Source: a virus
Length of the DNA: 64,000 nucleotides
Virus record (IMG/VR): IMGVR_UViG_3300025141_000021
Strand: one strand, 5' to 3'
Within the stretch, counting starts at the first letter, position 1. The number at the start of each line of letters is the position of its first letter. Position numbers and translations under genes: made by a program. Of this stretch, positions 3,163-63,995 are shown piece by piece. The notes beneath the pieces were generated by a model. That model was not told the DNA's origin. It searched no databases and saw only the letters and a program-made list of their open reading frames with translations.

Positions 3163-4110
3163 CTACTCCTTGGTAAAAACGCTTTTCGCTTTTCTTCCTG
3201 GATGTAAGGCCCTTATTGTTTCTTTTGGTATTTCTGAATCAATCGAAACCTCCATATAATATTCAACACTAGTATTATCAGTTTCATATTCGATTTCTTG
3301 AATTTCGTTTGGATCCAATAATAAATTATTCTGTACTAAAGAAGTTCTCTTCGCAAAAGATAGGGGAGTTAATTCCTCATGAAGATCGCTTCTGGTAATC
3401 CCGGGCGTTGTTTGACCACCAGTAACATCTTCAACTTCAAAAACTTCAATATCAAAATTTTCGTTTGTAAATAATGAATTGTTTTCAAGTACTTCTAAAA
3501 TAATTCTCTCTTTAGTACCCCCCATATTAACTGAAGTACCATCATATTCAAGCTCATATTCGATATCTGCATCTAGTTGTGGGATTCTAAAGTTTGGATG
3601 TGATCCTGTAGAATAGCTAACGGAACTTGAAAGTTCTCCAGCCAAAAAATTAATTGCCCATGATGGTAAAAATTCTGAATTTAATTCAGATGTTCCCAGT
3701 GGTGCGCCCAGAATATACGCTTTCTCTGCAGTTGGTGGAGGGAGCGGCTTGGGCTCGCGGTAAACCTGATACAACGTGCTGGCACGGCGCGCGGTTCCAG
3801 GTGGGAGGGCGGGATGCTGGAGGAAGTGGCGCTTACTTACCTGCGTTTCTGCGCCAGTATATATGTGTTGTACACGAAGATTTGGAGTGTCGTCTTGAAT
3901 TCTGCCCTCTGTTGCATTCTGTGCCTCAGATACAGGCTCGGGGTCATGACCGGGAGTCAAAGTCGGCGCGCTGTATTGTATATCATACAAAATGTCATCA
4001 TCAAAAAAAGCATAATATGTTGGACGCCATTTGCCCTTGGAAAGCAAAGTTTTTCCATATTGGGTTAGCTTAATTTCAATTACTTCTTCTTTTTTATTAA
4101 AAAATGTCAT
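3163..4110 (-). CDS. Putative baseplate/tail structural protein (315 aa)
   Basis: ATGA-coupled to the 3986-aa gene. N-terminus (KLTQYGKTLLSKG...YYAFFDDDILYD) resembles tail-fibre/baseplate attachment domains; this is a weak resemblance. Confidence 0.5.
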   Translation of the reverse strand: MTFFNKKEEVIEIKLTQYGKTLLSKGKWRPTYYAFFDDDILYDIQYSAPTLTPGHDPEPVSEAQNATEGRIQDDTPNLRVQHIYTGAETQVSKRHFLQHPALPPGTARRASTLYQVYREPKPLPPPTAEKAYILGAPLGTSELNSEFLPSWAINFLAGELSSSVSYSTGSHPNFRIPQLDADIEYELEYDGTSVNMGGTKERIILEVLENNSLFTNENFDIEVFEVEDVTGGQTTPGITRSDLHEELTPLSFAKRTSLVQNNLLLDPNEIQEIEYETDNTSVEYYMEVSIDSEIPKETIRALHPGRKAKSVFTKE

Positions 4111-7100: not shown

Positions 7101-10100
7101 GCCCCAGAGATGACTACTTGTGTTGAAATTAATTCGGGCATCGAGTGGCCATATACTCTGAGTTAAGTGAGTATAACCCATAGAGTTCGTGTGATAGATT
7201 CGCGATCTACTGGGTGTCCTTAGATTGGCTTGGCCTCTTTTATCGATATTAATCTCACTTCGATCCTGAGACCCGGTCCAATTTAGGCCTGCTCCCCCGC
7301 CTCTTTCATTGTGCCAATAGCTTACATCAAATGTTAATCTTCCTCGCGATCTAGCTTTATGTGCACTAATTTGTCGAGGGAATATTGTTTCACTATAAAG
7401 TATACCATTTACAGTAGCTCTTCCGGTATTGCTTAACTCGACCAATTCGTGCAACGATTGTTTGGATCCACAATCGGATATTCCCAGTCTGTTGTTTAAA
7501 TCGATATTGTCAAATTTAACTAAGTTGTTTGCATAAGTGTGTTTAAGGGCAAAAGAGTTTCCGCCATTGGTAATTACATGAATAAGCGGTTTAAATTTGG
7601 AAACCACCACCGATTCGCTATAATGTGCTACACCGGGACGGAGTTTCTTCGTGTGCACATTGTTGCGGTTTACAATAACAACTGGTGTTTCCATAACGCC
7701 AATAACGTTATTTCTTCTCTGCCATCGCGCAACAGGATGCTCGCCAGTTCTTATTTGCTTCCAACTAGGATATTGATATGGGCCATTCCGATGTATTAAC
7801 ACACTATTGAGAAGATCTTCTTCTCGTATGATTGGTTTATTATTTTGCCCCAATCGCCATGTCGGGCTTCTCATATTTAAAGTACCGCTGTGAGATACAG
7901 CCAAAGAAGAGAGAGGGCGAATTTTCTGCCGTTCAAAAGAACTTGTATTTTCGTAATACGTTAAAGAAGCGCCCGGGGTTCCATGAGCCAATGGGTACCC
8001 AAGAGTTGCCGCTGAGCCAGAAATAGGCTCATAAATAATTGTATTCAAGCCAACCGAATCATTGAATATATCTTTCTGGTTTAGATCGGCACGGCCAATT
8101 TTCCCAAACTTTTCTCGGGCAACCAGCATGCTGCCAGAAAAATTGACTTGTCTAAGGTTTCCGCCATGGAAGCCCTCTTGAATACCACCTCCAGAGCCAG
8201 AAACAGTTGCATCAGATCGAAGGGCCCCATTGGGTACAGCGTGGTGTCCATTACCTGACATGTCATAAAATATATTGCCGGGACTACCAGAAACAGGATG
8301 AACATCCCAAGAACCCGCACCAGAGCCATCGGTGGAATCTCTATTTGACGGATTATTAATGTCATACCCATCACCTAGGGGCCACCAAGCTACCAAATTA
8401 TCAGCTGCGGAATGCTTTGTATAATCAAATGGAGATCCGTCATTATATAATTCTGATACTTCGTCAGCTGAAAGCGCTTTATTAAAAATAACGAAATTGG
8501 AAACACTCCCAGACATGTTCAACTCTCCATATTCGGCCTCACCGCCGGCGTCGTTCTCAGCCGATCCAGCTCTACGACTGCCGGTCAGATTTCCAATAAA
8601 GCAGCCTTGGCCATGGTCGCTCATTGTAATTCCCGTACCGTGGTGAGCCACAAAGTTCTGGGTACCTTCCATTGTTGGGCTAACTGCAGCGCTATCCTTG
8701 TAGTAAGCTTGCACCGCAGGGTCGGATCCATATCCACGATTTTCATTGACAGTAATCAAGAAGTGTGTCCAATGGCCGGCCTCTAGGCCGGTTCCCTCCT
8801 TGAACTGCGACCACTTACTGTCGCCGACGGCGAAGTTCATACTTTGTGGAAAACGATTCGAGCCTTCAGCTTGGTAACTGCCAGACCCCTGTTCTCGATA
8901 ATATATCGAAAAATCGTGAGCCGAATTGGTCATGAGTTTATAGTTTCTACCAAGAACCCATAATACTGCGTTATCTCTACCTTTGTTTCCTCCGTAACGA
9001 TGCAAATAATAATTTTCTGTAAGATAGTAATAGCCGCCAATTGTAAACGAACCAGTTCCGCCGGCAATTAAATTATTCCATTTCGCAGCTGTTCCAAGAA
9101 AAATTGCTCCAGTCAAAGCGTGAGCCCATGTTCCATCTGCTCCGGCAATTCGCACATCAACATTTTCATTCGCAGTGTTGCCAGAATTAAAAGTCACACA
9201 TCTGCTGCTAAAATTTGTCCCAACTGTCACAGCAGAAGCACTTTGGAATGTAATATCTGAAGATGACGTTGCATATCCAAGAGTTGCTTCTTCAGCAGAG
9301 GCAGTAATCCAAGCGTACTGTAGATCGCTTTGTGGAATTGGGCGCTGCACAAACCAATTATCATATACTGTGCCGGTTGTTACCGTATTGGTGTCATCTT
9401 GCCACTCATCTCGGTAGCTTGCAGTGCCGTTAAATTCAAGGCGCCTTCTCGTATTTCTGTGTACCTTGTGGAAAGATGGGTAAGCAACGTAGTCATACCA
9501 AAGCGTACTGCCATAAGTGGCATCAGCGCCGAACTTGTGGCTGTGGTCCGACAGGAGCGTTCTTAGACCTCTCCGCTTGCCCAGATGGTCAAACACCCTT
9601 AACGAGCCCGTCTCGCCGCTCCCAGAGCCTCTAACGGACATGTTTCGCCATGGATAAGCATTGTATGCAGAAAACTCTTCGTGAGCAGGATCTAGATAAC
9701 CCCTTGAATTTATTTTATATCCGCCAGGAGCAGAGAAACGCTCAACAATAATGGATTTATTAGAGGCTGATCCTGTTCGTTGTGGTAGTTCGTAATCTAA
9801 ATTACCACTAAGATTCTCTGTAGTGCCTCCTATAACCGGGGGCGATTTTACTGTTATTGCTGAAGCACCTGAAGTTCCGTGAAATCGACCCATTTGATCA
9901 TGAATTGCACCATTATATGTGTCTCCTGAATCATCTCCCATCTTCCACCAAGCATGGAGATTTTTAACAAATCCAAGCGCTTTTAGGTTATGTCTTCGAC
10001 CATTGTTATAGACTTCTTTAATCTCATTGGCAGAAAGGGCTTTGCTCCAGACAGCAAAATCACACATATTTCCGGGCCAGTTGTCGTCGCCGTCATAATA

Positions 10101-13100
10101 AGAGCCAATCGTACAGAGTTCACCATCGGGTATGTCGTAAACAGTGGATCCTGCGCTACCGCCGGTACCGGACTGACTTCCATCGATATAGATTTTCATA
10201 TCCCCAGCATGACCACCTTCGTAGGTTACGACTACGTGCTGCCAAGTATCAGCCACTATGGCATTCGTCGCGCTGTCCGTAGTAGAGACGCCCCCGTAGC
10301 CGCGAATGCCAAAGCGGATCGTATCGGGCCAGCCGCTCCCCCACGTTTGCAGGTAGCGCCGTTGATTACCAAAAGCAAAGAAATAGGGGTATGTATCGCC
10401 TATAGTAGTGGGGTATACCCACATCGAAATCGAAAATGCTGCTACGGAGGCGACGGCGGAGTTTCCGCTGGTGTCACCGCCGCCAATAACTGGATCCCAG
10501 GCAGAGCCGAGACCGATGTTCACAAAATCATTGCTGCCATCAAAAAGTAGTGATTTGTGGTCAGGTGTTTCAGCAGGAAGTCTCCCGCGAGTACCAAGTG
10601 CCTCTGAACTAGTGGCAAAAGTAAAGGATTGATCCCTAAAGAACGGATCGTTTATCGATCTGCCAGAGGTCTGAACAATCTCGTAGTTTCTCGTATAGTT
10701 TCCGATCTTCGTTCTTAAAGCGGTGCCCGGGCCAGAACTGGTGGCCTGTTGAATATTGCGAATGTTTACTGGCCGCTTGGCGTATTCTGGGCGTGTGTAA
10801 ATTGCGCGAGGGCGATGGACGATTAGCGGGAACGACGGCTGGCTAGTGTCATAGCGGCCATTGGCCAATTTCGGTGCATCAGGATACGGATAATCTGCAG
10901 AAACAAAGGCGATGGCGCCGCTTCTTGCGGATTGACCGGACATAGCACCACCAACTTTTTGTTCTATTGTTCCAAATAATAGAAGCCAAGCTTCTGGTCG
11001 ATTTGAAATATCATCACTACCAGTATTGATTTCAATGTGCCTATGTTGTCGGCCACCGACATATCTTTCGGTAAACGGACCTTGCATTGGTATTTCATTT
11101 TGATTGGCATATGTGTCTGAGTGCAAGTTTGTTATTTCAGTACCCGATAAAAATCCATCAACAACTGCTCTGTTGTAGCCAGTTTTCACTGATGAACTGT
11201 ACAAACTGAATGGAACAATTAACTCGCCCTTACCAGATTCATAACTTAGGCCCTCATTGTGAACATCTAAGCCCGGGAAATTTCTACTTGCGGCCGAACC
11301 AAATGCTAATCTTCTCTTTTCGTTAGGATGGATCCATAGTTCTGATTGCCTTCCAGTGTCGACATCACTAGCAAAACTAATTTGAATATTGGCCGGAATT
11401 GTGCTAGATTCACCAGAGCCCAAGCCCGTAGGCCCATGCGGTTGAACAGAGTTAATTACATAATCTCGATTCTTATTTATCGCATAATTCGTGCCGGCAT
11501 GAAGACCCGACAACTTACGAGAAATACCGCGAACACGACGTTGCGGAGCAGATCGATCCGGCTGGGCAATCATCATCGTCTTGTTTGGAGAAAGCCCAAT
11601 GACACCGGGGCCATGACTCATATCAGAATAGAATTTATGCTTAATTCCCTTTGCCAATTCGTTATTATATGATATTGAATACTCTACGCCATCTTCAGTA
11701 CGTCTGGATTTGCGCCTATTTCCTTTTCCTTCTGGCTTAGTCTCTGCACCGGTACCAACAGCCTCAAGCTTGCCAGAGCGCCTATCGATGCTAAATGTTT
11801 TGTTACGTTTAATCCTTCGAAGATTTTGTACTTGCTTGGACATAGATGAATTTTCTTGCCCCGGAGTAATCCTAACTGACGATCCAAACTCTGCTATATC
11901 CGATACCAACCTCACAAAGCCGGTAGACATGGGCTGAGCTTGAAGAGGATCAAACGGCGGAGGTTGAAATTCCCCAAAAACATATTCGACGCCGGCATTA
12001 CCAGCGGCCTTTGATTTTACGGTTGGCGGGCCGGGGAGGGGCTGGACCCATTCAACATCTTCTGCTGAAATATTTCCATATGGGGAACCATATGCTATCT
12101 CTTCTTGAACTGGCTGATGAAAATTATTCCAATCAAAGAAACTAGTGCTACCAATATCTACTGCAATCTCGCGATCAGAAGACATACCTTCCATTGTTGG
12201 GAACTTAGTTTTGTATATATTTCTCTCTAAAATGTGGCTTTCAACAACATTTCGTAGATTTTTTGCAAAATTAGCAGAGGCTGGAATCAGCTGTTCTAAC
12301 ATCTTGCTTAATGTATCGTCAACCCATTGATAATATGTTAAATATTTATCTAAATCTGGAGTATTTCCAATTCTCTCGAAAAACAATTGTCTTAACTTGG
12401 CCAGATCCTTGTATTCACCACGATATCGATTGATTGGCTCACCGACTAAATTATTAAAATCAAGAACGGATGCAAAGAAATTTAGTATTTCTTCAGATAT
12501 AGTTTGATAAAAACTCTTTTCAAATGCAAAGGAAAGATGAACTGGCCGAGAATCTCGCGTAGAGATTTCGTCATTTCTGTCTAATAGTGATATTGTATCA
12601 TTGCTGTAAAGATTTTCCGGAAGTTGAAGTCTTTGTGTATCGATATAATCGCGGTCGAGGACACCCGCAACGGCACTTTCCGGAAAGCCATAACCTTCTG
12701 CAGTGTGTTGATACTTAGCAACTGCGCCAGCCCAATTATATCTCTCTGATGCAATGGTGCTAGAACCAGAACTGTAATCAACAGCCGTAAATTTTCCTGA
12801 TGAGTCGGACCCTGTAAGCTGTTCAAAGTTCCAATGTAGCGCAAGGGTTTCCATTTCTGGAACTTGACCATATGTTCCTCCCCAACTGCTTCCTTGAATA
12901 TTATTCTCTAATAAATAAGCACTGCGATAAGGGTGATCTGTACCGAAATTGGCGGGGTCTCTAGAGTGCGCACGGATTACGTTTCCAGAGAGCGCAGTTG
13001 TCCAATATCTAATTGATGAAATTTTAGTATCAGTGTTGCTAAGCGCTGTACCGGTAAAATTAGTTCTGTGGGCGCCGGCATATATCTTTTTATTGGATCT

Positions 13101-16067
13101 TAAGAAATAAGCTCCAGAAAGGTCATCAACCGAGCCGGTTAAGATAAACTCATTTTGTACAACACCCGCTTCAGTGTTAACGCCATAAAATTCAATACTA
13201 TAGTCACTAGTTAGGGCTCCACCAGATGCCGATCTATTCGGAGCCACCTTTTTTGGCCGCAGCGTTACTGCAAAATTCCATTTTGTGTTATCATATGTTC
13301 GCGGGTAAAGGCTTGTTGTTAGGGCGGTAAAGCTAGCAAGGGCTCCGGTTACCGGATTTGATGCGCTTAGCATAAACCGAACATTGTTTGATTCCACATT
13401 TTCCTTTAGTGCATAAACTTGGAAGTTTGCATAATCATGGCCGCCGTCTCGATTTGTATGCCACGTTGTATCGGTAGTATCATCTGGTGTTTTGGCTGCG
13501 CCGGCGATGTGAGCAGGGACATGTAGGCCGAATAAGGAGGCAGTTGTAAATGATACGCCATAATGTCCTGCAGACGTTTTCGATGCCTGTTTTGGAAATA
13601 CTACTTCCGCTTCAACAGTCATTCCCGCATCGTCTTCAACACCGGGAACGTCAAGGCCCCCAGCGCCGGAACCGGAAATATATCCTCTAGAATTTGAGTT
13701 GCTGGTATCTTTTGCCTGGTATACGGTTGCGCCAAAACTTCCAGTATTGTTAAAATCTAGATAAGTTTTTCTCGTTGTAGTTGTCCGATAGTTATCTCTA
13801 AACTCATATGTAATGTGGTCTGCGTAAAGACTAAGCTTAATTAATTCGTCACTTACGCCGAAACATCTTATAAGATTTCGAAATGATTTTTCAGTGCCTT
13901 TAGACTTATAAATGTAATTGAGGTTGTTATATATGTTCTGATAAATCAGATTTTTAATATTATGAAGGTCGTCATCGAATTCTATGTTTTCGTTTCTAGA
14001 CGATAGTTGTTCTAATATACCGGCCTCGACAAAAATCTCTGGTGTTGTCATACCTGCAGATTCTAAAAGCCTATTATTAAACGGTAGAGGTTTTGCACTA
14101 CCAGTGGCTACATATCGATATGTTGTATCTTTTATCTGTGGAAGACTTTCAATTTGAAGATATAGTGTGTCTAAATATGCGGACAATATTTGTACTAAAT
14201 TGTATAATTGATTATGTTCGTCATCCCTATCCTCTTCTATAATCCAGGTTGGAAGAGAATAATACATACTAGCATTATTATTAATATCGTGTATTGATCC
14301 CGAGTTCTTCATCTCGGCAGTAAATGTTTGTATTAATGGGTTTTCGCGACGGACGATTGGATCTTTATATTCTGTGCTGGCACTAGCTTCGTTAATAGCT
14401 GAACCGGTTGCACGTGAACTTGAATTATACCCAGTCCACGCTCCGTTTGATATACGACCAGCATAATCTAATACAACCGAATCGGTTGTGCTGTCTTCTA
14501 CAATACCTTCGTTAAATTTATAATAAACGCCCAAATCTACGTTTGCGTCTATTTCGTTGGTTCCACCGTTTACTTGTGAGAACCAATGGCGACCTATATC
14601 TTTTGAAGTTCTCTTTACTTTCCAATATCTAAATTCATCAAGCGAAGCGGACAATTTTCCATCGCCTTCGTTAATATGCTGCATGACACCGTTGGCGCCA
14701 GAAGGAGCAACTCGCAAAGCACCAATATTTGCTATTAAAGATCCGGTTACTTCTCCGAGCGTTGTACCGGCTGAAATAGTTAATTCCTGATTAAGTGCAC
14801 CAGTAACATAAAATTTCGAAATTATGTTATTACCTGATGCAATAAACGAAAAAGCGTAATGATGCCAGTTATCATCTGCAACAGAAGCAGAATTAATTGT
14901 TGTTCCAATTACTTGATTTGAAAATCCTTTTGATCCAGACTGCAGCGTTACTCTAAACGGAGATTCGTCAACGTTAGTACCACTTAATTCAATTGTAAAG
15001 CGCCCGTAGCCCGAACTAGAGGAAGCCTCTCCGTTCCAAAGATCAAATATAACCTCTTTCTGGGTTGTACCAGTGGCAAAAGCTGCTTTTTTCAACCAAA
15101 ACTCTACAGTAGATCCACCCGCTTCACGTGTTACTGCGCCAACAGATCCTGTTTCTAAACTACTGCTAAATCTTAATCTTAAGTTTGAAGCTCTATTCAG
15201 TTTTGAGTCATATATATTTGCACCAATTCGAGTGCCTGATGGGCCGGCATGTGGTCCACCTTTGACTTGAATATATTCTTTTGTGGTTGGCCGGCCATAG
15301 CCACCCTGGAAGGCGGCGCCGCCTGTGAATGCAGTGGTATCACCGGTTACATTGTTCATATTAGTAACAATTGCTGTATTGCCTGCTGCTCCAGCAGTAT
15401 CCATAGTAAGTAAAACTACCCCCGAGGATGGGTTTGTTGCAGTTATGCCTAAAGTAGCTTCACCATTAACTTCAGAAGCTAATTCAGTTGCAATGCCGGC
15501 GCCACTATTAGCAGCAGGATCCAGAGCTACTGCGCCTGCTGTAGCTACGCCATCATTATGATTGTCAACTTCAAAGGTTATTGAAGTACCATCAGCATCT
15601 ATAAGCGTTATTACTCTTTCTTCATTCGGCTTATCGCTGAATGTAAGGGTTGCAGTAGCTTTGCCGTTGGCAGCTGCGTTGGAGCCCCAGGATTGACTTA
15701 ATTGCGTTGTCCAACCAGTGGGCGAGAACAGAGCATATCCCGTTGTTCTTGGATATCTATGCTCGAATATATATTTGTCTAGATAAGATGAAGAATTATG
15801 CCAGACCAGCTTTTCATATTTTGAACCATCATATGGATATGTAACATAAATTCTTTTGATAGAATCGGCATAATACTGTTCTGCAGAGCCAAATTTTGCA
15901 AAGTTTTCAGGTTTTGAAAAGTCTACAGCCGGTAAAAACCGTTCTCTGTCAATAACTGCGGCTTCAACATATTCGGTTGCTTCAATTTCAGAACCAACCG
16001 AATCGTTGCTTTTCGCACTAGTGCTTTTTTTAACTTCTTGATTATCAAAAAGTTTCTTAATACTCAT
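4107..16067 (-). CDS. Giant baseplate wedge (gp7/P2 gpI-like) protein with four LamG/concanavalin-A-like domains (3986 aa)
   Basis: Motif IYNNLNYIYKSKGTEKSFRNLIRCFG (~13860-13930) is typical of gp7/gpI-type wedge subunits. LamG signatures: VEFWLK..WHHYAF..LDEFRYW; WNFAVTL..ISSIRYW; FDGSNDFV..SISMWV..WQHVVVTY..IYIDG..FAVWSKALS; WTHFLITV..FVIFNKALS. Lies downstream of gp25- and gp6-like genes. Confidence 0.7.
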   Translation of the reverse strand: MSIKKLFDNQEVKKSTSAKSNDSVGSEIEATEYVEAAVIDRERFLPAVDFSKPENFAKFGSAEQYYADSIKRIYVTYPYDGSKYEKLVWHNSSSYLDKYIFEHRYPRTTGYALFSPTGWTTQLSQSWGSNAAANGKATATLTFSDKPNEERVITLIDADGTSITFEVDNHNDGVATAGAVALDPAANSGAGIATELASEVNGEATLGITATNPSSGVVLLTMDTAGAAGNTAIVTNMNNVTGDTTAFTGGAAFQGGYGRPTTKEYIQVKGGPHAGPSGTRIGANIYDSKLNRASNLRLRFSSSLETGSVGAVTREAGGSTVEFWLKKAAFATGTTQKEVIFDLWNGEASSSSGYGRFTIELSGTNVDESPFRVTLQSGSKGFSNQVIGTTINSASVADDNWHHYAFSFIASGNNIISKFYVTGALNQELTISAGTTLGEVTGSLIANIGALRVAPSGANGVMQHINEGDGKLSASLDEFRYWKVKRTSKDIGRHWFSQVNGGTNEIDANVDLGVYYKFNEGIVEDSTTDSVVLDYAGRISNGAWTGYNSSSRATGSAINEASASTEYKDPIVRRENPLIQTFTAEMKNSGSIHDINNNASMYYSLPTWIIEEDRDDEHNQLYNLVQILSAYLDTLYLQIESLPQIKDTTYRYVATGSAKPLPFNNRLLESAGMTTPEIFVEAGILEQLSSRNENIEFDDDLHNIKNLIYQNIYNNLNYIYKSKGTEKSFRNLIRCFGVSDELIKLSLYADHITYEFRDNYRTTTTRKTYLDFNNTGSFGATVYQAKDTSNSNSRGYISGSGAGGLDVPGVEDDAGMTVEAEVVFPKQASKTSAGHYGVSFTTASLFGLHVPAHIAGAAKTPDDTTDTTWHTNRDGGHDYANFQVYALKENVESNNVRFMLSASNPVTGALASFTALTTSLYPRTYDNTKWNFAVTLRPKKVAPNRSASGGALTSDYSIEFYGVNTEAGVVQNEFILTGSVDDLSGAYFLRSNKKIYAGAHRTNFTGTALSNTDTKISSIRYWTTALSGNVIRAHSRDPANFGTDHPYRSAYLLENNIQGSSWGGTYGQVPEMETLALHWNFEQLTGSDSSGKFTAVDYSSGSSTIASERYNWAGAVAKYQHTAEGYGFPESAVAGVLDRDYIDTQRLQLPENLYSNDTISLLDRNDEISTRDSRPVHLSFAFEKSFYQTISEEILNFFASVLDFNNLVGEPINRYRGEYKDLAKLRQLFFERIGNTPDLDKYLTYYQWVDDTLSKMLEQLIPASANFAKNLRNVVESHILERNIYKTKFPTMEGMSSDREIAVDIGSTSFFDWNNFHQPVQEEIAYGSPYGNISAEDVEWVQPLPGPPTVKSKAAGNAGVEYVFGEFQPPPFDPLQAQPMSTGFVRLVSDIAEFGSSVRITPGQENSSMSKQVQNLRRIKRNKTFSIDRRSGKLEAVGTGAETKPEGKGNRRKSRRTEDGVEYSISYNNELAKGIKHKFYSDMSHGPGVIGLSPNKTMMIAQPDRSAPQRRVRGISRKLSGLHAGTNYAINKNRDYVINSVQPHGPTGLGSGESSTIPANIQISFASDVDTGRQSELWIHPNEKRRLAFGSAASRNFPGLDVHNEGLSYESGKGELIVPFSLYSSSVKTGYNRAVVDGFLSGTEITNLHSDTYANQNEIPMQGPFTERYVGGRQHRHIEINTGSDDISNRPEAWLLLFGTIEQKVGGAMSGQSARSGAIAFVSADYPYPDAPKLANGRYDTSQPSFPLIVHRPRAIYTRPEYAKRPVNIRNIQQATSSGPGTALRTKIGNYTRNYEIVQTSGRSINDPFFRDQSFTFATSSEALGTRGRLPAETPDHKSLLFDGSNDFVNIGLGSAWDPVIGGGDTSGNSAVASVAAFSISMWVYPTTIGDTYPYFFAFGNQRRYLQTWGSGWPDTIRFGIRGYGGVSTTDSATNAIVADTWQHVVVTYEGGHAGDMKIYIDGSQSGTGGSAGSTVYDIPDGELCTIGSYYDGDDNWPGNMCDFAVWSKALSANEIKEVYNNGRRHNLKALGFVKNLHAWWKMGDDSGDTYNGAIHDQMGRFHGTSGASAITVKSPPVIGGTTENLSGNLDYELPQRTGSASNKSIIVERFSAPGGYKINSRGYLDPAHEEFSAYNAYPWRNMSVRGSGSGETGSLRVFDHLGKRRGLRTLLSDHSHKFGADATYGSTLWYDYVAYPSFHKVHRNTRRRLEFNGTASYRDEWQDDTNTVTTGTVYDNWFVQRPIPQSDLQYAWITASAEEATLGYATSSSDITFQSASAVTVGTNFSSRCVTFNSGNTANENVDVRIAGADGTWAHALTGAIFLGTAAKWNNLIAGGTGSFTIGGYYYLTENYYLHRYGGNKGRDNAVLWVLGRNYKLMTNSAHDFSIYYREQGSGSYQAEGSNRFPQSMNFAVGDSKWSQFKEGTGLEAGHWTHFLITVNENRGYGSDPAVQAYYKDSAAVSPTMEGTQNFVAHHGTGITMSDHGQGCFIGNLTGSRRAGSAENDAGGEAEYGELNMSGSVSNFVIFNKALSADEVSELYNDGSPFDYTKHSAADNLVAWWPLGDGYDINNPSNRDSTDGSGAGSWDVHPVSGSPGNIFYDMSGNGHHAVPNGALRSDATVSGSGGGIQEGFHGGNLRQVNFSGSMLVAREKFGKIGRADLNQKDIFNDSVGLNTIIYEPISGSAATLGYPLAHGTPGASLTYYENTSSFERQKIRPLSSLAVSHSGTLNMRSPTWRLGQNNKPIIREEDLLNSVLIHRNGPYQYPSWKQIRTGEHPVARWQRRNNVIGVMETPVVIVNRNNVHTKKLRPGVAHYSESVVVSKFKPLIHVITNGGNSFALKHTYANNLVKFDNIDLNNRLGISDCGSKQSLHELVELSNTGRATVNGILYSETIFPRQISAHKARSRGRLTFDVSYWHNERGGGAGLNWTGSQDRSEINIDKRGQANLRTPSRSRIYHTNSMGYTHLTQSIWPLDARINFNTSSHLWGGIVSKTVAATSWRSGSHDTVGNAGGSTRGSSYAGGIESNPAQGRTGKSYFNELSHSQDGAGELQNNYTFYMSSGSHSASLPGHKKFAVGPVYARRVPSGTLANPDVFVGDALWEAGDQAKKYPFWAKDYAEYAEEMRAFTRGQGHPYAIVPEFRISEHMEFYVVEQGGNFMADTENRNTAPKGAKIQSIQLGGPQGMLTLTGSQLSSSLESEFYKVYSHTDFLEHFGDIGEQHKNTHAPSGIALECKALLKFLPYDGFYPALRTMQLATLLSKSYGHQLVTTASRATAPSAGHPRTFYAPFIAPGILYNTIKSGIAVDYPIATKASGALGEEALETIIFSGSMAEYSVGGDGNEARLLKHSGIGTGMIATVGFDQRLPFEAILAPERYLAAPFICDVEPHPSSTLGRLTPIVKLGYGAGKIVDHRPDKNHVGVGNLAPKPLYSMAMHNFLAESMDFFLKDGRATTFVSRPSSDLVEAIGGTTYSMRLYMSRNKDTVMYDRESAFGPPCGTDAPGIANAGPGTQGITYSPFSPPWFHATGSGAEISAGGLGAQGKVQTWTQIDFSPDESKRYSISEILASSSITVQERVVDIKSQTGFWDQRMKLTASINFFEKAKINATQFEALTGRPATVSDDPSTPIEAWVIQSKYETPVLNFANVDQTMGFDPNENSALTASRGMWHQYGQLCTGSEGIWMQLKDVKHGGASGSLVDLVGFPDEPQRIGQIADEKIIREAVVAIPFIEEGRRRNFFTIKRKNLKIALGEEPLPAGETISKSTKDMLEKMQRYVFPPRLDFLTNRRIPPFAMYIFEFEHTLSKQDLADIWQNLPPDIGKDFEDRGTSDQAAEAVVDHPLFEREFFGETGVPCRLQWMVFKVKQKAKKNYFAKTADTRDDSRFKFNFRLGEGADAASQRDVVPNYSFNWPYDYFSLVELIKIDAEISFEPIENPVRTAGRGPAPESGEPLVDEDGTINEREGRRRRRREGLSTLKEKSPSRTADDE

Positions 16068-19928: not shown

Positions 19929-22900
19929 TTACTCGCAAGGTTCTACTGGATCACCGGTAGAAGTGGACAGATTTGCTGCGCGTCGGGCCTCTTCCTTTTC
20001 TCGCGGCTCTAAGAAGCCCAATAGAAGATATATAAAGCCAAATGGTCCGAGAGGGGGGCCAAATCCTAGGAACAAATCGATTGGGCCCAGTAAAATCTGT
20101 AATTTCTGCATGTTCATCTTATCTTGTAGCCACTCATCAATATTATAATCTTCAATGTCGTCGATCAATGTCATCGCCTCATCAACTAAAGCTTTAATTG
20201 CCGGTGGCAGTGGCGGGAGCTTTCCTGTTTTACCATTCCAAGTTGGAGAACATGCCATTACTGCTTCTACGGCAACGTTAATTCCCTGTTGTGCTTCATC
20301 ATAAGTGTTTGCTGCGTTATCCAAAGTGTCTATTGCTGCTTCGGCCACATCTGCTGCCATTGCTCGGGTTTTTTTAGCTTCTTCAAGTGCTTGTCTCAAT
20401 ATTTTTTCAATAATTGTGCGTATTATTCTCGCAATAATAACGTTTGGAGACAATATCTCTGCCAAGCTCTTAATAATCATCAACGGGGTCATAATGATCA
20501 TCTTCGCAATTTCGCCCGCCATGGCTCCTCCGGGAGCGAAGTCGGGTACAGTCGTTGCGTTTCTATCGGCACAAGCTTTCATACCAGCATTGCCACCACT
20601 TTCTACTATTGATTGGTCTTCATAGCGATAATCGGCGCCGAACAATATTGCTTCTAATAATTGCTTTAAATTTATTCTTGTTCCTTCAAATGCAAAACCT
20701 TGAGAAGCTTCTATTGTTTGAACCGCCATTAGCATCGTCGGTAATTGCTGTGCCAGATTAATATCAAAACAGTTCTTGAACAAAAAGTTATATTCTGGTG
20801 TTGCAACCATATCGTTTATAAGATTATTAATTGCATCAGCGCCGTTCCAGTTATTACTATAGATAAGGCTTTGATCGAATTCGGTCTCAACTTCTATTAA
20901 CGGAATTGGATGCATATTTTTCTCTGTTGTTACTGTGGTCGCGGGTTCCTCGGATGGAATAATGTTGACCACCGTCGGGGTTTGTTCGCCAGTAAGGACA
21001 CGCCGAAGATCTCCTTGAGGAGTAAAGAAGCCCGGGCGATCAGAACGTGAGCGAGCGCCCACTTGGATTACATACCACCAATTATCGTTAACGTCTTTTG
21101 CCATAATTCCGTTTTGCCACTCTGCTTTGCCAGAAAACTTTGGGCCAGTCAGATGTTTAAACAGCCAATCGTTTGCATGTTTAAATCCACCGCCATCTGG
21201 ATTATTAACATCTAAATGCTTAAGCAGAGTCAGCATGTCCTGCCTGCGCATTGCCGGCTGGACTACGTGATGCTCAGTGAGCGGCGGCGCACCGTGCGCT
21301 GCCGTGCCGACACCCAGCACTTCCGGCATTGCAGTAATTTTCATTCTCTTCCAGCCCATTCTATGGTCGCCGTATTGGTCGAAGGCGCCCATACCCCCGG
21401 GGATCATATTGCCGTGCATCGCTTGGTAATCGGCCGGATTGCCTGCTGCCCCAATTGGTACGAACGAATTACCATGAGCGCCGCTCGAGTTGTCGGTGAG
21501 GTGCGATTTTGCCCAGCCCACTGCCTCATATCTGGCCTGCATGCTGCCGCCGCTCGGCAGTGGGCTGGGGCCAAGCCGATCATTCGTCACTTCGCTTGGC
21601 CGGCCAACGGGGCCGGCTTCTGGGCCGTTAGCAAATGGACCAACATCATAATCTCCTACATTGCCGAGCGAGCTGTCTCCAATCGTCATAGTCTCGTTTC
21701 GCGTGTGATTAGGATCTCCAGTCGGGTTCTCGGGCGTGGGGTAGGGATTGAAAAGTCTTAAATCTCGATGCCAACTTTTAGCTTTATATTTTTTATCGTC
21801 GCCGCGGACCTGTTTATAATATATTGGTACAACCAGTGCATAAAAAGTATCGTTATCGCCGCCCTCTTCGGCACCAAAGTCTCGATATATACTTTCATTG
21901 CCTGTTATAACTACAGTTGAATTACCGCCAATTTTCTGGTTCGCATATTCTCTCCAAAAAAATGCTTTCTCAAATACTGTTTGTTTAACTTTCTCATTTG
22001 GGTGGTAATGATTTATTAGATTGCCGGCTCGGAAGGGGAAAGCCTTTCCACCACCATTGAGTCCTACATGCCGCTGATTGCCGAAGTCGACTGAGGTGAG
22101 GGGAGGTACAAGCTGCTGGGCATCCCATGAGTACATTGAATATTCTGGAATATTGGACGGAGGTATCCAAACTAATCTTAATCCCCAGCGCCAATCATCG
22201 AAATACTCTGCAAATTTTGTTTTATCTGTAAGGTCATGAACCTCCTGAGAAAAGGCTCCCGGTAAAACATCCAGTGCAAACGAGGGCGAGTTGAGACGGA
22301 AACCCTGTATATATCGCTGCCATGCGCCCGGGCTAACACAGCCGACATAAGGGCAACCAACGTTGTGACTGTTCCTGTCGGAGTAGGTGCTGAGGCCGTC
22401 GACCGTCTCGTTCATAAATGTCTCGTGTCGATTTCGGAAGGGTATTACCCGGGCAACATCCTGCTCGATGATCGCTGTCTGCGATGAGTGGCTCATGATG
22501 TCGGACCAGCCGGCGCTAGTTCTATCGTAAAACGCTCTCAGGCTTGTTTCAGTCCATGTCGGAGTGTTTTCCGGGGCCGAGCCGGGCATGCCATCGACCA
22601 TTCCTGCATCAACAATGCGTATATATTTTTGTAAAGCAAAAGTACCACCATGCTTTGCAAGCAAGGGCAGATCATAGCCTTTTGCTTTGGCATCATCCAA
22701 AAACTGACTAATTGTTTGGCCAACCCACCAGGATGGAAGACTTCTTAAATAATCTTGTGGCGCCGTGAGCGGATTAACTGCAATTGGGGCGCCGGTGGAG
22801 ATTTTTGCATTAGTAACCATCCTCTCAACATCATCGGCTATATCCAGCAACTGTTCGTCCATTATTGTTATAACTGCAGAATCTAAGGCATTTTGATCGG

Positions 22901-25900
22901 TTGATAGGCTAACTGCGCCGGAAGAAAGCGAACGTGAAGTATCTAAAGTAGTTCGGAGTTCATTGACCAGTTCTTTAAGAGTGCCGTTTTGCATTGCAAG
23001 GGCAAATTGTGCAATATGACTATAAAATGCAGAAGGTATCATCTGTGTCGATTTCATGCCCCTACCTGATCTAAGATTCTTCATTTTATTTAAGATTAGC
23101 GGCTTAATGAGATCTGCAAATCCCGCGGCTGTCGGATCATTTCTTAATTTAAATGTGCCTAATTGAGTATTTCCTCCCGTTGTTGTTATCACACTTTTAA
23201 TTGCAGGATCTGAAAACATAAATATACCTTTAACCGAAAAGTCTAAACAATATAAACGTATAACAGCTTTAACAATTGCTCCTACAACCTCTGATGCGAG
23301 ATTATCCTCGCATGGATCATCATGAAAATTTTGCTTAGCTCCTTTAAGCAGCGCTGGAATATCTAATAATTTTCCCGGGGCGCCGGGTGGACACTCATAT
23401 GATCCAAAGAAATCTAATTTATCAAGCGCCCCTGGTTGGAGAAGTGGTAAGTTTTTTAAACGCTCGGCTTCTTGTCGTATAAATTTTAAGTATAATCCGT
23501 GATAGCCGCGGCTCATATGTTTGGCTTTATAGGCAGAGGTCCCGCCCATCGGGGCCGGCCCGCAAATATAAGAATTGATTCCATTCATTATCCGAATATC
23601 ATGCGTCGTGACGGGGTTTTCGTGGGCGTATTTAAGATTAAATGCATTCTTCCATTTGTTTTTTACAAATCTGGCAAAATCTAGAACTTTTGTATTACGA
23701 TTTCTCAAGCTTTCATCAGAGATATCGGTGCCGGGTGACGCCTCAGTAGTGCCTGCTAACGCTTGATACCATGATTGTGCTTCGAAAGCTGATCTTCTTT
23801 CTTGGAACCAATAATTCGACAAGAATTGTCCGTCGGCATTATAAAATTGAAGGGCTTGACTGAGTGGCCTGACGTTGAGCGGGCCGCTGGTCAACAATGT
23901 CAGCTCCATTCTCTTCGTGCCCTTAACAAGTAAACTATAGCGGTCAGTGATCCAGTTAGCGTCCGCCGTGCGGGCCGATCCTAGACGGGCTCGATGTTCT
24001 AACAAATTCGCTTGGCGGGCACTGCCGGCGGATGTTGATGTCGACGCTGTGCGTATAAAAGACATTGCCTCCAACATCTCTCTTTGCTCTTTAAACGGAT
24101 CAAAGTTTTTCCTTTGTATCCTGCCAAAATTATCTGCTGTTATTGTTTCATACTCAGCCTCGATATCAGCTATCATTGAATACGGGGCTAAATAATATTT
24201 TGTTGCAACCATTGCTGGGGAAGAGATGACAATTGGGTTTTCAAGATCGATGTTGAAGATGGAATTGATTGTGATCCATAGGGGCCAGCCAACAACCGGG
24301 TCCGGGCCATCGCCGGGATTGGGGGTACCCACAGCGCCGGTGGTGACAACCTCGCCGGCGTTCAAAATTGTTCCATCGTCTTCCCACCTACCATGAGGCC
24401 AGTCAATTGTTTCTTCTAAGATCTCGACCTTCTGAACGGTGCCCGCTTCGACGTTTCCGTCAGCGTCTTTAGTGCCGTTCAGGGCCGACATGAGCACTCC
24501 CCCGCCTTTTTCTATTTCTAAGGCCTGTTGTTTGCAGCGTGCGATTCTGCGCATATGTCTTTCTAGGGGGTATAGGTTGCCTGATGCATCCTTATCAGCA
24601 GCGCGGGATTGGAACTTGTGTCCTGCGGGCGCTGGCTTAAGGGCGGTGGGATCGCCACCCGGTGGAATGACTTTGCCGGTCTCGATGAGACCACCAGTGC
24701 CATGGAGGTCATCCGGAAACCAGCCAAGATATGTCAATGGAACGAAGACAAGCGTTTGACTTCGATCTGGGCCCAGGAGTTGATTAAGCGGATTGTCGTA
24801 GTCTACTGCGCCTTCTCGTCCAGTTCCAAATACTTCAGCCAATTCGGCATCAAAGGTCATTGCCGGGGCATCAAACAAAACCTTCATTGTTTGGTCGACC
24901 ATGTGTGCAATTGAAGGTATCTCTGCTGGAGCGCCAGGAATCCTAGCTATACACCCAGAGGCCGCGTCTTCAACCGCTTCCAATGGATTAGTGCTGAGAA
25001 TATCGGCTATTGAATTTACATTATCCATAAGCTCTTCTGTTCGTGGATCGGGGAAGGGCCTTGGCACCGGTGTACAAACCGGGCCTCCTCGGATATCCAA
25101 TTCTTCTGCCGCTAGCGTAATCGCATCGCACAATTCTGGATCAACGTTAACTCCCAAAGATTTAAAGAAGTCCGCTATGTTGTTGGTATTTAAGAAAAAG
25201 TCACATTGTGGGGGACTCAAACGCGGATCAATGTCGTTTTGTTCGAAATACAATCGTATGTTTTGTAAAGTTCTGGGGCCTGGTTCGCCTTTTAGCAATT
25301 CGCAAATTTGTGAAGGCGTGAGGAATTTTGATATATCGCCCAATATTTTTGGGCCATTCTCGGCCACAGCGGCTTTTGCTTCAGGGTCTAATCCTATATC
25401 ATCGTCAAGCCAATGGGGGTCCGTATTACCAGTATCAACCAAGTCGTTCATATCTTCTGTGCCTGGCTCCGGAGATGCCGCGGCCAAACAGGCTTCCAAT
25501 AATTGTGTTAATACTTCAAGCAATATCCGAATAATGGTCTGGATTATCATTTTTTTAATGGCTTCTTCAATTTCTTCCATCGCCATTTTTTTAATGTCTA
25601 ATACTGGCAACTTTGGAATAAACATTGAGGGAGTTATTGGCGGGAGATGTTGACCAAATCGATCCTTAATGCCCGCAAAGCTTTCAACCATGGCTGCGGC
25701 ATTTTCTGCAGTCTCCATAGCCGAATCGGCAATTGATCTTACGTTATTTACCATATCTGTTGGATTTGGCAGATCGCCGGCTTCTATGCCAGCGTTAGGA
25801 ATTTGTGCCAAAAGACATTCCATTGCCATGGCGGCAATTTGTTGAAGTCCATATTTATTTAGAATTTGGTCATAGGTGACCATTATTTTCTCCATGGCCT

Positions 25901-27683
25901 TACGTGCCTTTTCGATCTTCTCCATTCCCTTTTGTAAGGCCTCTGGTGCAGTATTAATCTGCTCCACCATTTCTTTTCTAGATAAATTCTTTTTGCTAGC
26001 TTTCTTTTTAAATGCTATGCCAGCTTTCTTTCTTCTTCTTTCTTCTTTTTTCTTTGACGCCCGTGTTTTGTGAGGTGTCGCTTTTTCGTCATTTTTGCGC
26101 AGCGTCTCATCAGTGCTTTCTTCACCGGGGGTCGACCATTTAATTTTAACTAGAGGATATATAAATCTTTGAATAAACATTTCCCAGTTGTTGCCAAATT
26201 CAGTATTTGGCTTTGGGTGGAGGTATCCGTCTATTAACTTAGTATGTTGAATTAACGTATGTGTACGAGCACTTATGTCTCTTAATTTTTTGGCTCCTGG
26301 AGTATTAAAGCCGTGTTCTGACGATCTTTCAAATAAGGCCTGTTCATTCAGTACGGTGCTTACATTCTTTTTTAAAATTAGGAATTCAAGATCATGATTT
26401 CCTGAAAGTCCAAGTTCTAATTCTGAATCGGCCGGCATCGGCCAAACTCCAAATTTTTCTAATGCACTTCTAAATTTTGGAAGATATTGTTCATATCGGT
26501 CCACTTCTTGGCTCATATCCAAGCTTCCAACATCTAGGCCATCGCTTTTTGCGCTTTCTACCTTGCTATGGATTCTTCCCATGAGCTTGGCAACTCTTTC
26601 AACTCTCTGGTGCATGCGCTGGGGGTCAAGGTCGAGTTGTCCGCTAACATCAGGATCCAACTCTTCTGCAGTAAGTGTTAAAATATGTTCTGCCCCAACA
26701 CGATTGCGAACATCATTGGCGTTGGAAGTGATAAGGCTTGGTATGCCATCAAGTTCTAGAGCAGAGATCTTAAGCAATACATATGTCACATCTGAAAGAT
26801 ATGCGTCTTCGTTAACAATTGAAACTTTTGTTTTGAGAACTTCTAAATCAATGCCAGAAGTATCTTTGTTAAAATGTGAAAGAAAATTATCTCTAGCCGC
26901 TTCTTGTGCCTGCGAATATAATATTTCAAGATCTTGTGAGGATGGGCCGGCCCTCGGCGCAGTATGTGTATACCAATAATCTGGTTGTTGGTTGTTCTCC
27001 TGGCCATTCCATCCCTTTGCGGGGCCCCATGGATTTGGATCATGTGTTGTCCAGTCCATGGACTGGATCAACTGCCAGCCTCCAAGTTCGTCGACGGCGG
27101 TGACAGGCACTTTTACAATTACATGTACCCATACTGCATCGGTACCACAAGCAAAATTTCCAGTTTGTGACCAGCTTAAAGCGATATCTCTAGCTTGTCC
27201 TCCATCCCAGGAAAGATTGTTTGATGGATTGGGTTCGGGATTTTCTGGCCCATACCATTCGCTAACGCCCTGGCGGGTATTGGCCGGAATTTCAATGGGT
27301 GTCGATGTTCCGGGAAGAGTATAAGCGGTGGTGGCGCGTTCAACGGTCATCTGCCAAAACGTGGCAGAGTTAACTAAATCTGGAGCCTTGGCTTCATCTT
27401 TATTTTGAGATCTTAATATGCTTTTGATCGCATCGAGTTTGGCATTATTAATTGCCTCTTCCGCGGATCCAACAAGACCAAAGGTTGGTACGTCGCTGCC
27501 GCCGGCTCTGCTATGCCACTGGGTCTCTGTAGTACCATCTTGCCTTTCTGCATCGGCAGCGCTACGTATTCTTATTGCTTTTCCGGTCGCGACATAATCA
27601 TCTCCAAGCGTTGTTGGATCTTTAAACCTTGTTAAGTCATACGGCGTTTGTTCGTTTGCGGCATTTTCTGGATATTGTGGCAT
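19929..27683 (-). CDS. Giant hypothetical virion protein (2584 aa)
   Basis: Uninterrupted ORF between the spike and gp25-like genes. Largely helical, with coiled-coil, Lys-rich and hydrophobic segments. No catalytic motif recognised. Confidence 0.75.
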   Translation of the reverse strand: MPQYPENAANEQTPYDLTRFKDPTTLGDDYVATGKAIRIRSAADAERQDGTTETQWHSRAGGSDVPTFGLVGSAEEAINNAKLDAIKSILRSQNKDEAKAPDLVNSATFWQMTVERATTAYTLPGTSTPIEIPANTRQGVSEWYGPENPEPNPSNNLSWDGGQARDIALSWSQTGNFACGTDAVWVHVIVKVPVTAVDELGGWQLIQSMDWTTHDPNPWGPAKGWNGQENNQQPDYWYTHTAPRAGPSSQDLEILYSQAQEAARDNFLSHFNKDTSGIDLEVLKTKVSIVNEDAYLSDVTYVLLKISALELDGIPSLITSNANDVRNRVGAEHILTLTAEELDPDVSGQLDLDPQRMHQRVERVAKLMGRIHSKVESAKSDGLDVGSLDMSQEVDRYEQYLPKFRSALEKFGVWPMPADSELELGLSGNHDLEFLILKKNVSTVLNEQALFERSSEHGFNTPGAKKLRDISARTHTLIQHTKLIDGYLHPKPNTEFGNNWEMFIQRFIYPLVKIKWSTPGEESTDETLRKNDEKATPHKTRASKKKEERRRKKAGIAFKKKASKKNLSRKEMVEQINTAPEALQKGMEKIEKARKAMEKIMVTYDQILNKYGLQQIAAMAMECLLAQIPNAGIEAGDLPNPTDMVNNVRSIADSAMETAENAAAMVESFAGIKDRFGQHLPPITPSMFIPKLPVLDIKKMAMEEIEEAIKKMIIQTIIRILLEVLTQLLEACLAAASPEPGTEDMNDLVDTGNTDPHWLDDDIGLDPEAKAAVAENGPKILGDISKFLTPSQICELLKGEPGPRTLQNIRLYFEQNDIDPRLSPPQCDFFLNTNNIADFFKSLGVNVDPELCDAITLAAEELDIRGGPVCTPVPRPFPDPRTEELMDNVNSIADILSTNPLEAVEDAASGCIARIPGAPAEIPSIAHMVDQTMKVLFDAPAMTFDAELAEVFGTGREGAVDYDNPLNQLLGPDRSQTLVFVPLTYLGWFPDDLHGTGGLIETGKVIPPGGDPTALKPAPAGHKFQSRAADKDASGNLYPLERHMRRIARCKQQALEIEKGGGVLMSALNGTKDADGNVEAGTVQKVEILEETIDWPHGRWEDDGTILNAGEVVTTGAVGTPNPGDGPDPVVGWPLWITINSIFNIDLENPIVISSPAMVATKYYLAPYSMIADIEAEYETITADNFGRIQRKNFDPFKEQREMLEAMSFIRTASTSTSAGSARQANLLEHRARLGSARTADANWITDRYSLLVKGTKRMELTLLTSGPLNVRPLSQALQFYNADGQFLSNYWFQERRSAFEAQSWYQALAGTTEASPGTDISDESLRNRNTKVLDFARFVKNKWKNAFNLKYAHENPVTTHDIRIMNGINSYICGPAPMGGTSAYKAKHMSRGYHGLYLKFIRQEAERLKNLPLLQPGALDKLDFFGSYECPPGAPGKLLDIPALLKGAKQNFHDDPCEDNLASEVVGAIVKAVIRLYCLDFSVKGIFMFSDPAIKSVITTTGGNTQLGTFKLRNDPTAAGFADLIKPLILNKMKNLRSGRGMKSTQMIPSAFYSHIAQFALAMQNGTLKELVNELRTTLDTSRSLSSGAVSLSTDQNALDSAVITIMDEQLLDIADDVERMVTNAKISTGAPIAVNPLTAPQDYLRSLPSWWVGQTISQFLDDAKAKGYDLPLLAKHGGTFALQKYIRIVDAGMVDGMPGSAPENTPTWTETSLRAFYDRTSAGWSDIMSHSSQTAIIEQDVARVIPFRNRHETFMNETVDGLSTYSDRNSHNVGCPYVGCVSPGAWQRYIQGFRLNSPSFALDVLPGAFSQEVHDLTDKTKFAEYFDDWRWGLRLVWIPPSNIPEYSMYSWDAQQLVPPLTSVDFGNQRHVGLNGGGKAFPFRAGNLINHYHPNEKVKQTVFEKAFFWREYANQKIGGNSTVVITGNESIYRDFGAEEGGDNDTFYALVVPIYYKQVRGDDKKYKAKSWHRDLRLFNPYPTPENPTGDPNHTRNETMTIGDSSLGNVGDYDVGPFANGPEAGPVGRPSEVTNDRLGPSPLPSGGSMQARYEAVGWAKSHLTDNSSGAHGNSFVPIGAAGNPADYQAMHGNMIPGGMGAFDQYGDHRMGWKRMKITAMPEVLGVGTAAHGAPPLTEHHVVQPAMRRQDMLTLLKHLDVNNPDGGGFKHANDWLFKHLTGPKFSGKAEWQNGIMAKDVNDNWWYVIQVGARSRSDRPGFFTPQGDLRRVLTGEQTPTVVNIIPSEEPATTVTTEKNMHPIPLIEVETEFDQSLIYSNNWNGADAINNLINDMVATPEYNFLFKNCFDINLAQQLPTMLMAVQTIEASQGFAFEGTRINLKQLLEAILFGADYRYEDQSIVESGGNAGMKACADRNATTVPDFAPGGAMAGEIAKMIIMTPLMIIKSLAEILSPNVIIARIIRTIIEKILRQALEEAKKTRAMAADVAEAAIDTLDNAANTYDEAQQGINVAVEAVMACSPTWNGKTGKLPPLPPAIKALVDEAMTLIDDIEDYNIDEWLQDKMNMQKLQILLGPIDLFLGFGPPLGPFGFIYLLLGFLEPREKEEARRAANLSTSTGDPVEPCE

Positions 27684-62585: not shown

Positions 62586-62614
62586 ATTATACATCTTCTG
62601 TGTTTAGATGTCAA
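62586..62614 (-). promoter_or_regulatory. Consensus sigma70 promoter
   Basis: TTGACA (62614-62609), 17 nt spacer, TATAAT (62591-62586), with a T-tract upstream of the -35. Confidence 0.85.
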
Positions 62615-62628
62615 TAAAAAATGATGTT

Positions 62629-62704
62629 TGGTGAGCCATGAGGGACTCGAACCCCCAGCCGATGGATTAAAAGTCCACTGCTCTACCCGTTGAGCTAATG
62701 GCCC
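62629..62704 (-). tRNA. trnK: tRNA-Lys(UUU), CCA encoded
   Basis: GGGCCAT/ATGGCTC acceptor stem, GCTC/GAGC D-arm, GTGGA-CTTTTAA-TCCAT anticodon arm, GGGGG-TTCGAGT-CCCTC T-arm, ACCA end; 76 nt. Confidence 0.95.
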
Positions 62705-62723
62705 GTTTTCCAAACATTAATAA

Positions 62724-62854
62724 GCCTCCCAGCACCGGTTCTGCTCTGACGACTTCCCAGCTGTGACAAGTCGGGTTTGTCACGAACATCAGCGTCATAT
62801 TCCGATCACGGCATGGATCTTAAGGCGAACACTACTTCGCCGCTGCGCGGAGGC
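62724..62854. ncRNA. Candidate structured ncRNA (multi-branched, ~131 nt), family unknown; probably minus strand by context
   Basis: Closing stem GCCTCC/GGAGGC enclosing TGACG/CGTCA, GTGACAA/TTGTCAC and GGCGAA/TTCGCC stems. GC-rich, in the only sizeable intergenic gap, directly 5' of tRNA-Lys. Confidence 0.55.
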
Positions 62855-62863
62855 AGGTAAATA

Positions 62864-63169
62864 TTATTGAATTGGTTTGAGCGGGGCAACGCCGGTCGGT
62901 ACTTCTCCAGAGACCATTCCACCATGTTTTGCAATAACACTATTAACCACATGTGTGGGAACATAACCATACACGGTCTCAGTGGGCCGAGACTGATCTT
63001 CAGCCCATTCAATGATAAGTTCTTCGCGCTGAGATGGAAACCCAACTTCAACTTGAGTATATTTATCTGCTTCGTTGATACGTGGGCTACAATAAGCTCC
63101 CTCATTAGCTTGTACAGACATCGTAAATCCATCTTTACAAACAATTTTCTTATTTCGCTTTATTAGCAT
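62864..63169 (-). CDS. Hypothetical phage protein (101 aa)
   Basis: IVCKDGFTMSVQA..AYCSPR..VEVGFPS is a pattern I associate with small phage proteins; GTG/ATG-type coupling to the upstream gene. Confidence 0.7.
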   Translation of the reverse strand: MLIKRNKKIVCKDGFTMSVQANEGAYCSPRINEADKYTQVEVGFPSQREELIIEWAEDQSRPTETVYGYVPTHVVNSVIAKHGGMVSGEVPTGVAPLKPIQ

Positions 63170-63617: not shown

Positions 63618-63703
63618 TGGTAGGAGAGGCGGGATTCGAACCCGCAAGCCCGCACGGGCGGCAGATTTTGAGTCTGCTGTGTATACCGTTCCACCACTCT
63701 CCC
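63618..63703 (-). tRNA. trnL: tRNA-Leu(CAA), type II, CCA encoded
   Basis: GGGAGAG/CTCTCCT acceptor stem, GCAGA-CTCAAAA-TCTGC anticodon arm, GCCCG-TG-CGGGC variable arm, GCGGG-TTCGAAT-CCCGC T-arm, ACCA end; 86 nt. Confidence 0.96.
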
Positions 63704-63704: not shown

Positions 63705-63995
63705 CTATAAATCGCTTAGTTTTCTACTAAAATTGATTTTAGGTTGTAGGTTCTTTCCTGAACGGATCCAGCCAAACTCATCTTTTCGGCTATTCCAATC
63801 TACAAACAGCTCTCCCTCTGTTGTATCCAAATCCAGTTCAACTTTATCTGGAAACTGATTTGTGTTTGTTACTCTCAAATACTCGATGCCGCCATTAACT
63901 GACACTTTGCCACAACTGCATGTTCTGTGATCATGCCTGGTCCGAGAAAATAGAATATCTTGGCATGCCTTACATTGGTATGCTTTAATAATCAT
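63705..63995 (-). CDS. Small Cys-rich (zinc-ribbon-like) phage protein (96 aa)
   Basis: CKAC...HDHRTCSCGKVSVNGG; its stop is 1 nt from the tRNA-Leu 5' end. Confidence 0.7.
   Translation of the reverse strand: MIIKAYQCKACQDILFSRTRHDHRTCSCGKVSVNGGIEYLRVTNTNQFPDKVELDLDTTEGELFVDWNSRKDEFGWIRSGKNLQPKINFSRKLSDL

Follow-up and report, generated by a model that had tools for sequence, protein, structure and literature searches.

Comparative analysis identifies a 131-nt element on the minus strand of a phage-like sequence window (62724-62854; the window is the whole stretch of 64,000 nucleotides that was analysed) as a putative conserved, pseudoknotted small RNA gene of a clade of uncultured large phages. 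About 20 distinct homologues, 92-174 nt in length and drawn from uncultured phage and metagenome contigs, indicate that it belongs to a real RNA family, despite the unremarkable folding energy of the single sequence. The fold, the strand, the family and the membership of a tRNA operon are established by this comparison, and we infer a discrete transcript. The element is best explained, with a probability of roughly 0.55, as a stable small RNA which acts in trans and which is predicted to be released by tRNA processing.

Unexplained small RNAs have been known in phage tRNA clusters since the species 1 and 2 RNAs of T4 were described, and the presence of such a structured RNA in a tRNA cluster is therefore not new in itself. 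What is new is a pseudoknotted family which has no match in Rfam and for which the comparative support is unusually clear. The natural variants, the fold backed by covariation and a 92-nt minimal form, found in L032 and L074, mean that the family can now be taken into assays of cleavage, RNase P action and structure probing. Should the RNA prove to be catalytic or to bind a host factor, it would reveal a means by which large phages control the supply of their own tRNAs; should it do neither, there would still be good grounds for proposing a new Rfam family.

Location and relatives of the element

The element ends 19 nt upstream of the 5' end of tRNA-Lys(UUU) (62629-62704, minus strand), its downstream neighbour, which was recognised by both ARAGORN and Rfam (71 bits). 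The spacer between the two (62705-62723, minus strand) is AU-rich, and its length, which an earlier reading of the window made from the sequence alone (hereafter the sequence-only reading) had given correctly, varies from 3 to 28 nt in homologues. On the opposite side, the stop of a conserved 101-aa ORF precedes the element by 9 nt. Every long ORF in the window lies on the minus strand, and the G+C content of the element is about 55%, against roughly 30-45% for the flanking genes. The element had also been described as the only sizeable non-coding gap; within the window this holds for gaps of at least 90 nt which lack a minus-strand ORF of at least 50 aa, once the two tRNAs are set aside.

The window sequence alone does not establish a structured RNA. 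The minimum free energy of the minus strand is -46.6 kcal/mol (z -1.48) and was equalled by 18 of 200 shuffles, while that of the plus strand is -45.6 kcal/mol (z -2.05). Perfect 6-bp helices number five, compared with a mean of 1.9 in shuffles, 8% of which match this count. A folding energy no better than that of shuffled sequences had been named beforehand as counting against the element, and the value for the minus strand comes close to this; it is the covariation among homologues which supports the structure instead.

Homologues were sought by several routes. With the 101-aa ORF (62864-63169, minus strand) as query, 29 related viral loci were retrieved, three of which matched part of the element in a local search. 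The ORF itself has no Pfam or PHROG match; besides being conserved in these viral loci, it is also conserved in cultured phages of Curvibacter, Vibrio, Acinetobacter and Pseudomonas. Pattern scans keyed to a conserved hairpin (hairpin A, described below) recovered true relatives in viral and metagenome contigs. A covariance model, R1, confirmed members at 47-95 bits: relatives found by pattern scored 78-95 bits, and the divergent additions L001 and L129 scored 47 and 67 bits, respectively. Chance loci carrying hairpin A alone did not exceed 31 bits. Three further scans of viral contigs, in which hairpin A or the insert length was relaxed, added only L001/L101 and L129.

Beyond these contigs, a blastn search of 50,697 deposited phage genomes with the window region and with the L085 element returned tRNA matches only. 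The pattern scan of 185,579 prokaryote genomes gave two matches, both to hairpin A alone and at the chance level of 21-26 bits, and a full-text literature search on conserved sequence strings gave nothing relevant. A single copy of the element is present in each phage genome or contig that carries it, among them G001, a complete genome of 203,859 bp with terminal repeats. Some relatives possess the same tRNA array without the element, and in the gaps examined (L005, L016 and L025) small ORFs occupy the slot, so the element is dispensable in some genomes.

Conserved fold and covariation

Alignments A1 and A3 are unambiguous at both ends. In A3, standard pairs make up 96.5% of cells, against 84.8% when partners are shuffled and 40-51% when strands are slid by one to three columns. 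Compensatory changes were found in 13 of the 25 pairs, a number reached by none of 500 shuffles, and the figures for A1 are similar. All the stems listed in the sequence-only reading are present in the window; the alignments separate those which belong to the family core from those which do not.

The outermost helix, P1, is formed by GCCUCC (62849-62854) and GGAGGC (62724-62729) on the minus strand, as are all the parts described here. It is 7 bp long in most members and 6-7 bp across the family, and six of its seven pairs show compensatory changes, which confirms the closing stem seen by the earlier reader as a core helix. Its 5' strand is followed by a bulge or junction of 3-4 nt (GCG in the window, 62846-62848; GUU in most homologues), the first G of which is invariant. 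Next comes P1b, a 4-bp helix which had been overlooked: CAGC (62842-62845) pairs with GCUG (62730-62733) in 100% of cases and is invariant except for a change from G-C to G-U in the L034 type.

Hairpin A (62824-62841) consists of a GGCGAA/UUCGCC stem and a 6-nt loop, GUAGUG. The stem had been rightly picked out and belongs to the core. It is nearly invariant and covaries only through L001, where GGCGGG/CCCGCC replaces two A-U pairs with G-C; this near-invariance is partly a matter of ascertainment, since most search patterns required hairpin A. The middle bases of the loop are variable, and pairing of the loop with the linker or with the 3' junction, sought by eye, showed no consistent covariation. 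A linker of 4-8 nt leads to hairpin B (62804-62819), in which a GAUC stem (62816-62819/62804-62807) encloses an 8-nt loop, CAUGCCGU, which opens with an invariant C and A. This stem had been judged weak; it is instead the best-supported helix of all, with four of four pairs covarying on both sides.

The loop of hairpin B also provides the 5' strand of a second feature missed by the sequence-only reading, a pseudoknot in which GCCG (62809-62812) pairs with CGGU (62734-62737). These strands are paired in 100% of cases and occur as GCCG/CGGU, GCCA/UGGU and GCUA/UAGU, with a conserved G-U at one end and three pair types at the last position. Hairpin B and the loop-to-3' pairing have no nucleotides in common, and together they have the classical H-type pseudoknot geometry, in which the loops measure 3 nt and 1 nt and the third is the long insert. 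The 3' end of the element is thus an uninterrupted strand (62724-62737) shared by three helices, with CGGU engaged in the pseudoknot, GCUG in P1b and GGAGGC in P1. It is preceded by a purine-rich junction, GCAGAAC in the window (62738-62744), with a family consensus of approximately CGAR-N-U and a GA dinucleotide in all members. This junction may make minor-groove contacts with hairpin B.

Between hairpin B and the junction lies a variable insert, 59 nt long in the window (62745-62803) and 18-100 nt in homologues, which cannot be aligned across the family. It contains the remaining stems of the sequence-only reading. The TGACG/CGTCA stem covaries within the nearest subgroup of the window (L064, L068 and L067) and has no such support beyond it, while the GTGACAA/TTGTCAC hairpin is present in the window and absent from L067.

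The insert also holds the helix on which a switch had been proposed, CGACUU/AAGUCG, which would compete with two inner stems and give the RNA two mutually exclusive states. The 6-bp alternative does exist in the window. However, shuffled sequences contain about two such helices by chance, this one lies in an insert that most homologues lack or replace by another sequence, and the 3'-side changes of L068 are explained by compensation which preserves the primary stem. A helix at chance level which is not conserved offers no evidence for two exclusive states, and a two-state RNA is highly improbable.

The alignments also bear on strand and coding capacity. Approximately 41 G-U cells would become A-C mismatches if read from the plus strand, which places the RNA on the minus strand, like the tRNAs. 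A coding interpretation of the overlapping ORFs of 43 and 35 aa was excluded by the variable length of the insert and by base-pair covariation.

Genomic setting and possible function

The usual order of the array is tRNA-Leu(UAA or CAA), element, tRNA-Lys(UUU), tRNA-Arg(UCU) and tRNA-Ile(UAU). In the window, the upstream member of the array is tRNA-Leu(CAA) (63618-63703, minus strand; ARAGORN and Rfam), with three small ORFs between it and the element; small ORFs lie in the corresponding place in a few relatives. The next tRNA on the 3' side is Met, Gly or Thr in some members. L001 has tRNA-Leu, the element and then an ORF, and the L034 type shows a promoter, tRNA-Met, a tiny ORF, the element and the next promoter; in this type, an additional outer helix and a U7 run close off the element. 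In L085, a strong near-consensus promoter stands just upstream of tRNA-Leu. These varied neighbours and the placement of promoters mark the element as a module in its own right within the tRNA transcription unit, with no fixed neighbour.

The tiny ORF between tRNA-Met and the element (L002 1604-1675, corresponding to L034 ~8479-8550) would encode a hydrophobic peptide. In the window, a perfect sigma-70 consensus (TTGACA, 17 nt, TATAAT; 12/12 matches) is located at 62586-62614 on the minus strand, between tRNA-Lys and a 144-aa ORF, and a new transcription unit therefore seems to start directly behind tRNA-Lys. The 144-aa ORF has no relatives in viral contigs.

The sequence-only reading had offered a riboswitch-like leader as one interpretation. 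A riboswitch or attenuator at this site would let a ligand or signal control read-through into the downstream tRNA or tRNAs, with P1 and a U-run serving as terminator. About half of the members (L055, L059, L075, L081, L001 and the L034 type) do carry a run of 5-7 U directly after P1, and the knotted core with conserved unpaired bases resembles an aptamer. On the other hand, the U-tract is missing from the window, L085, L084, L067 and L068; in the window, P1 is followed by UUAUUAAUG, the terminator scan was negative, and an intrinsic terminator was rejected there. L001 and the L034 type have neither a downstream tRNA nor a consistent expression platform, no alternative pairing is conserved, and no riboswitch family was matched. 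Variable spacers and the inconsistent U-run argue both against an attenuator and against any precise cis role on the downstream tRNA, and a leader is accordingly very unlikely.

A cis role towards the upstream neighbour deserves more weight. The element could be a processing module, a possibility also raised by the sequence-only reading: either a new self-cleaving ribozyme or a mimic of an RNase P substrate, which cuts at its own 5' edge and frees the 3' end of the upstream tRNA-Leu or mRNA. In at least ten homologues only 4-8 nt separate the CCA of tRNA-Leu from P1, and a structured, GC-rich trailer at this distance would presumably otherwise block exonucleolytic 3' trimming. The knotted core, with its invariant bulge G, the CA of loop B and the GA of the 3' junction, is combined with a dispensable peripheral hairpin. 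Furthermore, theta ribozymes, which are minimal HDV-like ribozymes reported from gut phages, adjoin phage tRNAs, often tRNA-Leu, and have been proposed to process tRNA 3' trailers (PMC10879173). Like the element, they are pseudoknotted and are found within a few bases of phage tRNA 3' ends.

Several features nevertheless oppose a processing module. No Rfam ribozyme family was matched at E<=10, the order of strands is unlike that of HDV, pistol or hammerhead ribozymes, neither boundary is marked by a conserved nucleotide, and the upstream neighbour is an ORF rather than a tRNA in the window and in several relatives. When an HDV-like or theta fold was looked for specifically, no partner for the upstream spacer of L074 was found by eye and no Rfam match was obtained. 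In the nested double pseudoknot of HDV-like RNAs, the P1 strand at the 5' terminus pairs internally and P2 closes to the 3' end; their 5' end thus pairs with the middle of the molecule, whereas in the element covarying helices join the 5' end to the 3' end. Processing in cis is rather unlikely on this balance. The more specific proposal, a new class of catalytic or RNase-P-recruiting RNA whose cut at its own boundary matures tRNA ends, and which in large marine phages would parallel the theta ribozymes without being related to them in structure, is unlikely as well, and slightly more so.

The preferred reading of a stable trans-acting RNA would operate as follows. The element would be co-transcribed with the tRNAs of the operon; RNase P would generate the 5' end of the following tRNA, and RNase P, RNase E or exonucleases would act behind the preceding one. 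The excised RNA would be 90-175 nt long, with both ends shielded by the GC-rich terminal helix. It would then act in trans as a folded molecule, whether by catalysis, as a decoy or by binding protein, the last of which appears probable. Action by base pairing, as in antisense RNAs, is unlikely because no single strand longer than about 4 nt is conserved. The rnaC and rnaD genes of T4 offer, by analogy, a precedent for a small stable RNA in a tRNA cluster. The stable-RNA reading is weakened by the unremarkable folding energy of the single sequence, by the lack of the element in some relatives, and by the fact that highly conserved nucleotides at the junctions and a knotted core whose peripheral hairpin can be exchanged are just as typical of ribozymes and aptamers.

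One particular trans role would be that of a decoy or anti-defence RNA, which binds or distracts a host nuclease or sensor targeting tRNAs, e.g. tRNA-Lys(UUU), and so protects the phage tRNA supply. The tRNAs around the element always serve A/U-ending codons (Leu UAA/CAA, Lys UUU, Arg UCU, Ile UAU), its neighbours in the window include a SpoU methylase and a PIN-PhoH protein, and its terminal helix, at 7 bp, is as long as an acceptor stem. Against this, the element lacks a T-arm, a D-arm and any loop resembling an anticodon loop, searches with ARAGORN and with the tRNA model of Rfam were negative, and the 6-nt loop of hairpin A has variable middle bases. The argument is drawn wholly from context, and a decoy is considered distinctly unlikely.

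Comparison with known RNAs and neighbouring genes

The suggestion of a novel phage RNA in the sequence-only reading is borne out by Rfam 15 as well as by the strong covariation of the family: no match to the element was obtained at gathering thresholds, at E<=10 in 451 nt, or at E<=5 in seven homologous loci. The model RF04354 (Plastid-ycf2) gave matches of up to 44 bits antisense to phage tRNAs (62631-62704, plus strand; also in L060, L074, L081 and L084); these are sub-threshold artefacts which could mislead permissive scans. As for tRNAs, ARAGORN and RF00005 detected only tRNA-Lys and tRNA-Leu in the window and nothing at 62724-62854 at E<=10.

The closest parallels in position are the T4 genes rnaC and rnaD (species 1 and 2), annotated as small stable RNAs, which likewise lie within the tRNA cluster of a phage, on the same strand as the tRNAs and a few bases from them. 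Homology to them was rejected: with filters off, the best R1 hit in the T4 tRNA region reached 6.6 bits and did not fall on rnaC or rnaD. In addition, rnaC ends in a tRNA-type T-arm, which the element lacks, and neither T4 RNA is known to contain a pseudoknot.

Other conserved, unexplained structured RNAs linked to phage tRNA genes include GOLLD and further large, ornate RNAs. GOLLD is about 800 nt long and constitutes an Rfam family, whereas the members of the present family measure 92-174 nt and match none. Functional RNAs can also be freed from tRNA precursors by tRNA-processing nucleases, as in the case of 3'ETS-leuZ in E. coli. Such spacer-derived RNAs are short, largely unstructured sponges; the element, in contrast, is knotted and has no long conserved single strand.

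Further candidates were considered and set aside. A fluoride (crcB) riboswitch came into question because hairpin A resembles its P1, and no Rfam riboswitch was matched at E<=10. An RNase P core likewise had no Rfam match: in E. coli RNase P RNA the 3' strand of P4 lies between the 3' strands of P2 and P1, while the 3' strand of the pseudoknot here lies inside P1b and not between P1b and P1. HDV-like folds (permuted ones included), pistol, twister and hammerhead ribozymes, 5S rRNA, Y RNA and the K-turn were dropped, as no tool supported them.

Some neighbouring genes of the window, all on the minus strand, may be recorded here. Just downstream of the tRNA/RNA cluster, the segment 60008-62175 encodes a PIN-PhoH fusion of 442 aa and an RNA methyltransferase of the SpoU family (176 aa). 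Just upstream of tRNA-Leu, at 63705-63995, lies the gene for a 96-aa protein with a DUF7695 match and CxxC-type motifs. Finally, two giant ORFs occupy positions 4107-16067 (3986 aa) and 19929-27683 (2584 aa).
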